64,000 nt of DNA, from NCBI GenBank assembly GCA_964016885.1, contig OZ024743.1, positions 289,602,001 through 289,666,000 of the forward strand. The letters are read 5' to 3'. Shown here in pieces: positions 5,844 through 29,400 of the stretch. The notes under the pieces were generated by a model. The model was given only the letters and a program-made list of their open reading frames with translations. It was not told the DNA's origin and did no database searches. Source of the stretch: Eledone cirrhosa (lineage: Eukaryota). Position 1 is the stretch's first letter. Each line of letters starts with the position of its first letter. Position numbers and translations under genes: made by a program.

Positions 5844-6066
5844 GTGGAAATGTGGAAGTGCAAAGGAGCACCCCTCTCTGTGCTCCTAAGGAAAAGGGTT
5901 GCACACTTTTTCGGGCGTGTGTGTAACTCCCAAAACGCCTTCTCCCTATTGAGGACTGTATTGTTAATTTTATATTTGTTATTTGTTTTTATTCGTTCCT
6001 TTATGTAAACTCCCCCCTTGTATTTGTCCCCTTCCTTTGTGCCCTCGTGGCAAATAAATAGAAACT

Positions 6067-6129
6067 TCTCTTTCTCTCTCTCTCTCTCTCTCTCTCTCTC
6101 TCTCTCTCTCTCTCTCTCTCTCTCTCTCT
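6067..6129. repeat. (TC)n microsatellite at LINE A 3' end
   Basis: Direct read. Confidence 0.95.
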
Positions 6130-6914
6130 AGATAGATAGATAGATATATAAGCTATATATAAAAATAAGTGTTTAGCTAATATAAAAATAAGTGTTTAGC
6201 TAATATAAGCCTTCCGTTTCATGTAAAAAATGTACATTGTTACATATTTATCTATTAAACGGAATGTCAAAAGAAATGTCTAACTTGGTCTCTTTCTTTT
6301 CTCCCTCCTTCCAGTGTATAGTTAACGATTTCCTCGTTAAAAGCCAATGCTTTAGTTTTCAAATATACATTTTATTATTGATAATATATATATTTAAGTA
6401 CAGCAAATACAAAGTAATAATCTGATGAAAATTTATATGCAGTACATCTAGGTTATTCGTCATTGAGTGTATTAACCTGTTGACAATAGTTGAACATGTA
6501 GAATCCTATAAGCATTTATATATATATATATATATATATATATATATATATATATATATACATAATACACACACACATCCACACACACATACATACAGAC
6601 ATACAGGCATGCATGCATGCATGCATATATATATATATATACACATATATTCCAAAATGAACTAAAACGCAAGTATTAGCCATCAGAGAAGATTTTACTT
6701 GCTTTCTTATTTTCTTACTTCCGTGTATCTTTCTATTTCTTCTCTCTCCCTCTTTCTATCTTCCGAGGAGGGACTATTGTCCAAAACGCTGAGACTATTT
6801 TCCTAATATATCATATATTAAACTAATATATATCATCAATATACTGTATTGTCATGCCAAAGGTAGTGAAATGTTGCGAGAAGTGGTTAAAGGAATAAAT
6901 ATTTTCGGTGACAG

Positions 6915-25900: not shown

Positions 25901-26406
25901 AGTGCTACCGGGGGGCACTGCCGGTTCGAGAGAAACTCTACTACTACTACAGGCACGGAAGTGCTGTCAGACGGACCTGCCCGAGATGCGCGCAGAGCGA
26001 CGAAACAGTTCTGCACGCACTCGTCCAGTGTCCGTGCATTACTGACTTGTGGAGTTATGTTGAACAGCTGTTGTCGCGTGTAGAACGGATCCGGCTATCG
26101 GCCGAGTCCATAGTGAAGATCGACCCGCTCCCTTCTTTTGACCAGGAAGGGCAGGCAATTTTCCCCTGTCTGGTGGCAGTAGCGAAAGAGGTTGTATGGT
26201 GGACGAGGTTGAAAGGACTGAAGACAGACACTTTTCTCTTCGGCCAATCCCTCATCAACTTTTTCAAGTTTCACTTGGAAAGGAAGGTGAGGGTGGAGAG
26301 AGAAGTGCTGCCCCCCCCCCCCCCCCCCAGTACATTTGCTGAAAGGTGGGTGAATGTGGCGAGAATGGCCCGTGTGAGTGGGACTACTCTGGTCGTGCGT
26401 CTGTAG
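22950..26406 (+). pseudogene. LINE C ORF2 (APE-RT-Cys/His motif)
   Basis: 483-aa RT fragment (KSPGLDGLP, RPITLLN, KAFDRVDH, RQGCPLS, AYADD) and 377-aa C-terminal fragment (CPRC..ETVLHALVQC). APE region broken. Confidence 0.94.
23209..23276 (+). repeat. 21-bp unit x3 inside LINE C endonuclease region
   Basis: G(G/T)GAAGTTGGTGGTCCTGGAC three times in tandem. Single in copies A and B. Confidence 0.9.
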
Positions 26407-29400
26407 GTAGGTAAATTTGAAGAGGAGAGGGGTGCCCTTCCAGGGTGCTCTCGAAGCGTCGGGTCGTTCAGGACTGGTGGGGTACCTGAGCGAACCCTAG
26501 GTGGTCATCCCCCCTATTGGGGAATTTTTTTCTTGTTGTAATTTTATTGTTACTTTACTGTTACTTTGTTATTGTTACTTTGTTTATTCATATTGTTTAC
26601 TCGATTTTTCTGTAAAACCCCACTGTCCCAGTCTTTTGTATTGTCCCCTATATGTCGGCCCTTGTGGCCAATACATGAAATCATTATTATTATTATAATA
26701 ATTATTATTATTATTGTTATTATAACATATTACTGATTGTAGAATATTAGGAGCATTTCTTTTCTCTTTAGTTATTTATTTATAGACAGGATGTCTCGAG
26801 AAGTGAGTGTGCTCGTGACTAAATAACTTAGAGCATGCAGGCTCATTTCTTTAAAGTTCCGAAAACGTTGAATTCACTTTGGATTTTTCAGGTAACGATG
26901 ACAAAATAAGTGGCATTAATATAATATACTACAGCTAATTCAGTCTCAGACGGCAAACTGCTTACATTTAAGCAACCCTTTTTTACGCATATATATACGA
27001 TTTCATTTTATACACACACTGACACACACACACACACACACACACTTATATATATATATATATATATATATATATATATATATGTGTGTGTGTTTGTGTG
27101 TGTGTGTGTGTGTGTACGCGTGTGCTTGTGTGTGTATACATACAAATATATACATGTGTGTATGCGTATGTATGTATCTATATATGCTTGGTAATGCAAC
27201 ATACATATGCTGAACATGCGGTAAAGAATGCAGGTCTACCAGCGACCTGAACAAGCACATTAAAGTGCATAATGAACCTCTAATGAACAATAATATTATA
27301 TCGATAGCCTTGCACACCTGCTAACTCTGTGCAAAACACTTTAAGTGATTTGCCGGCCTAAAACGCCATATCCTTTCAATGTACCTAACACAGGCCTGAA
27401 GCTGATGTCGGTTGATAATCATACCCGATCTCGGGGAGCTGCCATCATGTATATACATATATATATATACTTCACCAGAGTGAGCACTCGATGTGTAATT
27501 TCCAGTAAGTATTGAATTGTAGTACTAAGCAGGGTGTAGTAATATGTAAATATATATATATAAACAATTTATACATGTCGTATACCACGTGCATGTGCTA
27601 CTATTGACCTAATGTGCGGCTGCCCACTCCGTTCCGTTTATCAATTGGTCAGAAATGTAAATAAAACTTTCTTTTTTAAACCGTTGAATATTAAGTAAAA
27701 TTATAGTTAATAGCTTGAACGCACACTTTTTGGCAATGAAAAATAGTGTAATAAGTTAAGCATGTAAGGCCCAGAAAAAGTGGACAACGTCACCTGTGGC
27801 ATCTGAAGTCACACCTGCCGTATACCGTAAGGCTATGCAACAATTATACAAAAGCGAGACAGGTCATTTCTCTCTATTTTATAACCTTCATAAGTCGGCC
27901 AGATTCGTTGATACACAATCTATTTTTATAACCGAGTAATTTTGAATATTAAATTAATGTAAAATTAACAGCTTCAGCGCACAGTTTTTACTACGAATAA
28001 TTGTCCAATGACTTGTGCACGTAAGACCAAGGAGACCGGAGAATCCTTTGCATGTTAACTGCTGTAAATCACAGGGAAATAGTTTCAGAATGCCGATGTT
28101 CTGTGTAAAAAGGTCAGGCCGTAATGGCTAGAACAGTGTTTGAGGTAGATTTGGATACAGCATGCGTGTGGAAAAGAGGGGAGATGAGTTGTCTCATGAG
28201 TGGTAGTAACGTCTAGAAGGAGATACCATTTCTTAGTTACATTTATATTTCTCAAATATGAAGGAGACTGTAAGTATTTACATGTTTTATTAAATTTGAC
28301 CTTTTTCTTGACAAGTAAAATAAAGATTTTCCAATGGAGAATTATTTTGTCAAGATTGAAATTGTAATATACCTGTCAAACAGGACCCCTAGCTAAGGTA
28401 CGAAGGCGTCACTATTTAACGTTGCCCGGTTTAACAGCACCACATTGGGCGACTTCAATTGAGTTTAATTTGTTGCAATCATTCAAGCAACGTCTCTGAT
28501 TTGAGACTAACTTTCTCTCTAGTTCCCACAAATGTTGAACCTGAATAAATATCATTCGCTGAGTGCAGTGTACAATCTCTTTGTTTTGCTTCTGATATGT
28601 GGTAAACTGAACCGGACCTACTACGCATTGATGGTTGTTTTACTTTCGGTGAATTTAATTGCATTTCGTTTATAATGGTGGTTTGTATTCTACTGGCTGG
28701 AAAATATCTTATCTAAATCAGAACTTTTACGCTTACATCGATAACGTTATTTTTAACAGAATGTCTTTGTAAATTTGTTCATAGGTCTTGTTCATGTCTA
28801 GTTATATGACATCAACATTTAATCTGTTTCCCAAAATTCTAGACTTCATAAAATGGTACAGAGATCACGCTAAGCAGATTTTACCACGCCAGAAGGCATG
28901 TTAGTTTTAGAAGAGAAAATTGAAGATTATTTCGTTTTGCCCACAGCATCTTTCAAAGACATTAATTTGATGTGCGAGTTCAGAGAGAATTGACATAACA
29001 AGGTAAATATATTTCTGTCCATCAATTCATATAAACAATGTCTATTGGCTGATTTTTCTGAATAAGTTGCACTAAGAATTACTATTACTAAGAGATGGCA
29101 TTTCATTACTAATATTTCAGATAGGCACTTTACGTCAACAAGTCACACAAGTACTACACGAATATAGTAATACTTCGGATAATGGCTATAAGTAATATAT
29201 TGTTTAACAAACACTGAAACGTTTTCGTTCAGCATTGAAGTGTAACTAGAAACGATGTATCAAGTCGATAGGATACTAGCTCATAGTTATTTGTTTCAAA
29301 CACACTAAAGAATCAAGCCTGTTTATTTGAGCAGCGAATCTAAATTTACAGTTCTTACGTGAGTGTTTGCTTATGGGTGGCTCAATATTAGTTGAGTTTA

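Follow-up and report, generated by a model that had tools for sequence, protein, structure and literature searches.

A terminal stem-loop common to Tx1-group LINEs and a tRNA-type SINE of Eledone cirrhosa points to a LINE-SINE partnership

A 64,000-nucleotide stretch of the Eledone cirrhosa genome (assembly GCA_964016885.1, contig OZ024743.1, positions 289,602,001 to 289,666,000 of the forward strand; hereafter the window) contains three long interspersed nuclear elements (LINEs A, B and C) of the Tx1 group and two copies of a short interspersed nuclear element (SINE) of transfer RNA (tRNA) type, all of which end in a small hairpin with a CTYGT loop followed by GAAA. We propose that the SINE is copied by the protein of the second open reading frame (ORF2p) of Tx1-group LINEs that target (ATT)n, and that this protein would read the hairpin with its CYKGU loop and the GAAA ~10 nt downstream, not poly(A); we put the probability of this reading at about 0.6. 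A partnership as such between the SINE and the (ATT)n-targeting lineages, LINEs B and C of the window included, is highly probable, while recognition of the hairpin itself by ORF2p is favored with less assurance. Copying by a Tx1 ORF2p appears likely because the elements share a tail of ~30 nt, an (ATT)n orientation and target duplications of 12-28 bp, and we infer from the sequences that recognition by the Tx1-group ORF2p is of the stringent type.

Both strands of the window together hold 202 CTYGT loops, exactly five of which are closed by at least four Watson-Crick pairs, and all five are followed by GAAA. Across 100 dinucleotide shuffles of the window, the stem alone occurred on average 0.82 times (maximum 4) and the stem with GAAA 0.03 times (maximum 1). 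A preliminary description of this DNA had reported five hairpins with four Watson-Crick pairs each, and every one was located where it had been placed, five against the 0.03 expected with GAAA. It had also set GAAA 10-12 nt after the loop with the element end close behind, which is so in all five cases: the spacing is 12 nt (6040), 10 nt (8326), 10 nt (8377, minus strand), 10 nt (20717) and 11 nt (26657), and the elements end 1-4 nt past GAAA.

LINEs A, B and C are elements of two open reading frames (ORFs), with 68-73% DNA identity among their ORF2 sequences and the ORF2 domain order APE endonuclease (EN), reverse transcriptase (RT) and, as C-terminal zinc motif, zf-RVT (Pfam PF03372, PF00078, PF13966). 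No Pfam hit was obtained in ORF1, and a C-x2-C-x4-H-x4-C motif visible in the ORF1 frames of all three is presumably a CCHC zinc knuckle. The closest solved relative of ORF2 is human L1 ORF2p (E 8e-56; R2, 4e-21); the nearest named relatives are fish pol-like proteins, such as Tetraodon BAC82605.1 (28% over 889 aa), which we assume to be a Tx1 element. The Tx1-group label, which is provisional, follows from these nearest relatives and from target preference. A tree of 82 LINE copies separates into lineages A, B, C and D as its four main groups; within C, one subfamily is very young (0.3% median divergence). The exact LINE tail pattern occurs in at least 34,540 copies in the 3.0-Gb genome, a count that leaves out the CTCGT loop variant. 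Between hairpin and GAAA, all LINE lineages carry AATAAA, which resembles the canonical poly(A) signal; part of the conservation of the LINE tail lies in this hexamer, which the preliminary description does not mention. Poly(A) is absent from every LINE and SINE end printed in the alignments displayed. Farther upstream, the LINE 3' untranslated region (UTR) has another hairpin, with a 5-bp stem and a CCTATT loop, that every LINE lineage conserves and the SINE lacks; in lineage A it shows a clean replacement of C-G by T-A.

The SINE is ~185 bp long, with A- and B-box-like motifs recognizable by eye, and its exact tail occurs 159,217 times genome-wide. Shortness, a box-bearing head, high copy number and target duplications are all as in tRNA-derived SINEs; ARAGORN called no tRNA. 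The family comprises a short form, a short form that ends in ACTCT and a long form, and the tail lacks AATAAA. The SINE body has a presumed likeness to a Meta or CORE domain. The two window SINEs have a nested arrangement, and each has a target duplication of its own. Lying tail to tail, they form a long inverted repeat (8170-8552) that could be a double-stranded RNA editing substrate if transcribed; an Rfam search of 8100-8620 gave only sub-threshold matches of microRNA type, caused by the inverted SINE pair. Also in the window are a SINE that has an internal deletion and a decayed hairpin (33084-33170, plus strand) and a SINE fragment (31511-31579, minus strand).

The likeness between SINE and LINE ends was measured by aligning the 3'-terminal 40 nt of the main SINE to LINE ends and scoring the result against 300 shuffles. 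Eight Tx1 ends scored 8-13, with 0-14 of the 300 shuffles as high; Dong1, Dong2, RTE and an RTE-like end scored 4-6, and young CR1 scored 5-6, with 91-174 of 200 shuffles as high. The natural alignment of SINE and Tx1 tails has 22 identities in 29 columns, and between LINE lineages the last 30 columns are 0.70 identical, against 0.23-0.49 in five intervals upstream. About 1.1 Mb of the 3.0-Gb genome was examined directly. In 956 kb, no element other than SINEs and Tx1 LINEs bore a SINE-like tail and no LINE of another clade matched the SINE tail better, in keeping with the assignment made in the preliminary description. On these alignments, the SINE 3' end is judged to be homologous to the 3' end of Tx1-group LINEs over ~30 nt. 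A LINE combining the SINE-type stem with AATAAA was also sought; all 18 exact genome matches were SINE copies or fragments, and thus no direct donor LINE subfamily was found. One SINE copy (L306:1500-1525) has last bases that match the end of LINE C (AATAAA, GAAATC) and may reflect a template switch at the shared hairpin.

Heads of the SINE follow (ATT)4 in 2,007 cases and (AAT)4 in 23 (overlapping matches included). Tx1 lineages B, C and D likewise insert in the (ATT)n orientation, with heads after (ATT)n at 14 of 14 B-type and 2 of 2 C-type loci, many of them chosen near LINE tails; Dong copies end in (AAT)n. The simple repeat following each LINE is largely its target, and the (ATT)n run that LINE B has at its 3' end and LINE C at its 5' end is target site, not an element-encoded tail. 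SINE target duplications measure 12-28 bp and start with ATTAT. Duplications of at least 10 bp were found in 70 of 164 SINE copies overall and, in a random 400 kb, in 24 of 38, of which 19 were non-microsatellite (median 17 bp), compared with 25 of 400 mismatched controls. Among Tx1 copies they numbered 19 of 53, ~5 of them extending into non-repeat sequence. None was seen in 21 young CR1 copies, the 22nd row being a tandem duplication; some of the 5' boundaries reflect internal deletions, and ATT does not flank the CR1 copies on the 5' side. The comparison of target duplications suggested in the preliminary description therefore places the SINE with Tx1 and apart from young CR1.

That description had the L1/Tx1 group mobilizing the SINE. 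Tail scores, orientation and duplications bear the idea out for lineages B, C and D, which target (ATT)n. It is not supported for the lineage of LINE A, which targets (TATC)n: this repeat is the 3' flank in 19 of 20 copies of the family ((CT)n in the window copy), TATC stands at the 5' side in both flanks displayed, and SINE heads follow (TCTA)3 only six times, against two in reverse orientation. Four copies of one Tx1 subfamily (L316, L328, L332, L339) have the same flank starting CTCTAT, like the SINE subfamily ending in ACTCT, and may represent a second target or a sub-partnership. The ATT/AAT microsatellites used by Tx1 and the SINE also hold two Dong/R4-like families (L097, L116, L117, L127), which insert in the opposite orientation and thereby build up nested stacks of elements. 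A very young CR1 family (L265-L294) has a 945-aa frame, its own 3' hairpin and new (ATT)n tails, with no target duplications.

Pairing of the terminal stem was followed in 82 LINE ends anchored on AATAAA, where pairs 1-4 were Watson-Crick in 77, 78, 71 and 41 ends, with a further 23 G-U at pair 4. In 63 further ends (from 60 regions among the first 100 listed matches, with most B- and C-type ends left out), pair 3 was kept in 59 and pair 4 in 22. Since pair 4 is not kept, the stem amounts to three pairs. The claim that four different 4-bp stems stay paired thus describes the window copies, and family-wide it reduces to a 3-bp stem with two compensatory events: in lineage B, A-T has replaced G-C at pair 3, and in the SINE, G-C has replaced C-G at pair 2, with pairing retained both times. 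Each double change has a ~2-3% chance under random substitution, calculated post hoc. For 14 representatives, the covariation score was 0.464, where shuffles gave 0.165 and slid partners no more than 0.154; the number of pairs with a double change was not significant in the same set (46 of 500). In LINE RNA the inner hairpin pair has a predicted probability of 0.53-0.96. We considered extending the stem below by three further pairs, which hold in 13, 10 and 11 of 14 rows and show one double change; they are broken in SINEs, and the extension is not claimed.

Several observations weigh against the proposed reading. Pair 4 is broken in 41 of the 63 further LINE ends, in 31 of 87 short SINEs and in 9 of 11 long SINEs, being U-U in about a third of short copies and most long ones. 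The independent compensatory events number only two, and the SINE change at pair 2 can alternatively be explained by a single C-G pair dropping out entirely. A 3-bp hairpin is marginal, and all five tails in the window fold no better than shuffled sequence (z -1.55 to +0.35). In SINE RNA, the median predicted probability of the inner pair is 0.00-0.40 (12 contexts), because a rival 8-bp stem draws on the same TGG. Folding the hairpin in place of that stem costs a median of 0.0-1.8 kcal/mol, and the rival stem has its own compensatory change between subfamilies, in the portion that fits both folds. An older CR1 end (L118) equals Tx1 B with a score of 8 against the SINE tail, a value reached by 13 of 300 shuffles. 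The usual location of a SINE is a short ATT seed, not a long microsatellite, and SINE copies look older, with a median of 8.6% from the column majority against 0.3-4.0% in the sampled LINE subfamilies, which were chosen for intactness; given this age difference and the biased sampling, we do not claim that SINE and LINEs were active together.

In one alternative, the partnership is real and the hairpin is not read. ORF2p would then recognize the linear CTTGTG...GAAA, or only the target-pairing AUU end, and the LINE tail would be kept mainly as a 3'-processing signal composed of a U/G-rich element and AAUAAA. Under this alternative one would not look for pairing to survive two separate double changes, for three SINE subfamilies to keep stem and loop despite the loss of AATAAA, or for a covariation score so far above that of slid partners; it does agree with the invariance of pairs 1 and 2 among LINE families, which give no covariation signal, with the freedom of pair 4 to vary, with the other fold that the SINE prefers in full context, and with the AATAAA retained in all LINE lineages. 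Because the SINE lost AATAAA but kept stem, loop and GAAA, these features probably serve ORF2p rather than 3' processing, and the alternative as a whole seems to us rather unlikely.

The identity of the carrier can also be questioned. The SINE tail could derive from Tx1 long ago and its present carrier be another LINE ending in (ATT)n, such as young CR1 or an unsampled RTE or L2 family. Young CR1, with its long open frame, does end in (ATT)n in the same orientation, and the SINE matches 11 of 14 positions of a CR1 hairpin ~45 nt from the CR1 end (score 7.5; 31 of 200 shuffles as high); the portion of the genome examined directly was, moreover, small. The absence of target duplications and of ATT 5' flanks in CR1 is nevertheless at odds with the SINE duplications starting ATTAT, the sampled RTE ends in (GAT)n, and the 956 kb had no other family with a SINE-like tail, which together make a change of carrier improbable. 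Far less probable still is mobilization by Dong/R4 elements with a tail likeness due to chance. In its favor, the same repeat receives insertions of two Dong-like families, and Dong-R4 outnumbers all others among the recently active LINEs of O. vulgaris (PMC13282606, Table 1). The tails have no similarity (scores 4-6), however, and the orientation is opposite, so that the counts of SINE heads contradict Dong as carrier.

Copying by Tx1-group ORF2p through the hairpin, as we favor, could proceed as follows. AAUAAA would end the LINE transcript of RNA polymerase II (Pol II) within the (AUU)n run or shortly after it, and ORF2p would bind the loop that the 3-bp G/C stem carries. Nicking of the (AAT)n strand at ATT sites by the endonuclease may follow, and the freed 3' end would pair with AUUAU at the RNA end, so that target-primed reverse transcription would start right after GAAAnC and poly(A) would not be copied; a second nick 12-28 nt away would produce the target duplication. 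The SINE, a predicted Pol III transcript, would have taken its tail from a Tx1 ancestor and kept hairpin, GAAA and AUUAU, and it may have lost AAUAAA as not needed by a Pol III transcript. A bolder version, which we consider doubtful, would see here the first stringent LINE of the animal L1/Tx1 clade, in which a 3-bp hairpin, a CYKGU loop and a GAAA spacer replace poly(A) as the ORF2p handle and power one of the largest octopus SINE families; the SINE RNA would switch between the 8-bp stem and a LINE-mimicking hairpin, and SINE subfamilies would track Tx1 target variants.

The partnership of tails is genome-wide, known in kind and rare in this clade. In the literature searched, no animal L1/Tx1-SINE pair with a shared tail turned up; entries in Repbase and SINEBase, Ohshima and Okada 1994/2005, or Kojima and Fujiwara 2004 may name these families. 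The published systems are compared here from excerpts of the papers cited. The nearest parallel is the monocot L1 lineage 1a (LINE1-1_ZM) with ZmSINE2/ZmSINE3 and sorghum SINE2 (PMC3472496; PMC3747384), where an L1-clade LINE and tRNA-SINEs likewise share a short 3' hairpin end with a conserved loop and flank and a variable stem, and where stringency was inferred from sequence. That pair is from plants, shares ~50 nt and has hairpins of -10.8 to -17.7 kcal/mol, whereas the Eledone pair is an animal Tx1-group pair with ~30 nt shared, a 3-bp stem, no poly(A) and microsatellite targeting. L1-clade pairs make up 3 of 58 SINE/LINE tail pairs in the Ohshima survey, all from plants and algae (PMC3472496, PMC3747384), namely maize/sorghum and Chlamydomonas; the table as excerpted has no octopus or Tx1 pair (PMC3747384). 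Human L1 and Alu, too, have been proposed to form a stem-loop (PMC5135761). Stringent recognition has been proposed as the ancestral L1 state (PMC3472496, PMC3747384), a proposal to which an animal Tx1-group pair that shares a structured tail and lacks poly(A) is directly relevant.

In crocodilians, a Tx1-clade LINE, Tx1-Mar, was inferred as carrier of SINEU from a shared target preference (Kojima 2015, PMC4494074). SINEU differs in its small nuclear RNA (snRNA) head and poly(A) tail, with no LINE match to the 3' half of SINEU-1 in the excerpted text (PMC4494074), whereas the Eledone SINE shares a structured tail. Kibi and Koshi are also Tx1-group microsatellite inserters, with targets (TC)n and (TTC)n in place of (ATT)n and (TATC)n, and the excerpts of PMC4494074 mention no partner SINE for them. 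UnaL2/UnaSINE, ZfL2-1 and ZfL2-2 similarly have a variable stem, a specific loop and a short terminal repeat replacing poly(A), and L2-clade ORF2p reads the loop sequence while the stem need only be paired (PMC4176376). These differ in belonging to the L2 clade, in a longer two-part stem and in their proof by assay (PMC4176376), the Eledone pair being proposed from sequence. Other cephalopod tRNA-SINEs are the octopus CORE-SINEs OR1/OR2 and the cuttlefish MetaSINE SepiaSINE2 (PMC4824008, PMC4758252); the partner LINEs of MetaSINEs are stated in the excerpt to be not known (PMC4824008). SINEs make up ~11.6% of the O. vulgaris genome (PMC13282606, as excerpted). The present pair would name the likely engine of a SINE of more than 159,000 copies, and it suggests an integrase that targets microsatellites and has a minimal RNA handle. 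With its near-intact young ORF2 (copy L254, 1131-aa open frame) and a cis-element of ~30 nt, it offers a compact test system.

The motif is not general to Tx1, since none of 17 inspected loci, among 80 with distant Tx1-like elements from metagenomes (most at 25-34% best-segment identity), had the terminal hairpin; several of the inspected loci are incomplete, and some are A-rich at the end. In one (L158:5546-5947), the Tx1-like element is followed by sequence that by eye is U2-snRNA-like, as for Keno. The depth over contigs of four public runs was higher in the terminal hairpin bin than in the preceding UTR bin (X7, 626,954 against 162; X1, 295 against 0; X3, 449,140 against 125,082; X6, 24 against 6.5), which, for contigs at 80% likeness, is a weak hint of conservation in other organisms.

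Table 1. Positions of the LINEs, SINEs, hairpins and target repeat in the window
Feature	Position	Strand	Details
LINE A, near full-length decayed Tx1-group element, (TATC)n-targeting lineage	368..6065	+	5' end from four full-length relatives; 3' flank; ORFs
LINE A upstream 3'-UTR hairpin	5940..5955	+	5-bp stem, CCTATT loop
LINE A terminal hairpin TGCC-CTCGT-GGCA	6040..6052	+	then AATAAA 6053-6058, GAAA 6061-6064
tRNA-type SINE, subfamily ending GAAACTCT	8170..8350	+	hairpin 8326-8338 (TGGC-CTTGT-GCCA); 15-bp target duplication
tRNA-type SINE, main short subfamily	8366..8552	-	hairpin 8377-8389; target duplication ~18-21 bp starting ATTAT
LINE B, full-length decayed Tx1-group element	14903..20741	+	ORFs, Pfam domains, (ATT)n at either side
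LINE B upstream 3'-UTR hairpin	20597..20612	+	one stem base mutated in window copy
LINE B terminal hairpin AACC-CTTGT-GGTT	20717..20729	+	AATAAA 20730-20735, GAAA 20736-20739
(ATT)n run common to LINE B 3' end and LINE C 5' end	20742..20768	+	flank comparison
LINE C, full-length decayed Tx1-group element	20769..26682	+	ORFs, Pfam domains, (ATT)n at either side
LINE C upstream 3'-UTR hairpin	26508..26523	+	
LINE C terminal hairpin GGCC-CTTGT-GGCC	26657..26669	+	AATACA (family AATAAA) 26670-26675, GAAA 26677-26680

Other repeats occupy the distal part of the window. A Penelope-like RT ORF is present as a 2.3-kb inverted duplication of 99% identity (35129-37424 and 37559-39854), and the end of this ORF resembles what we take to be a GIY-YIG motif. 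Related pieces lie at 43027-45271, and another such ORF at 47888-49849. A repeat with a period of ~505 bp extends from 60632 to 63937.

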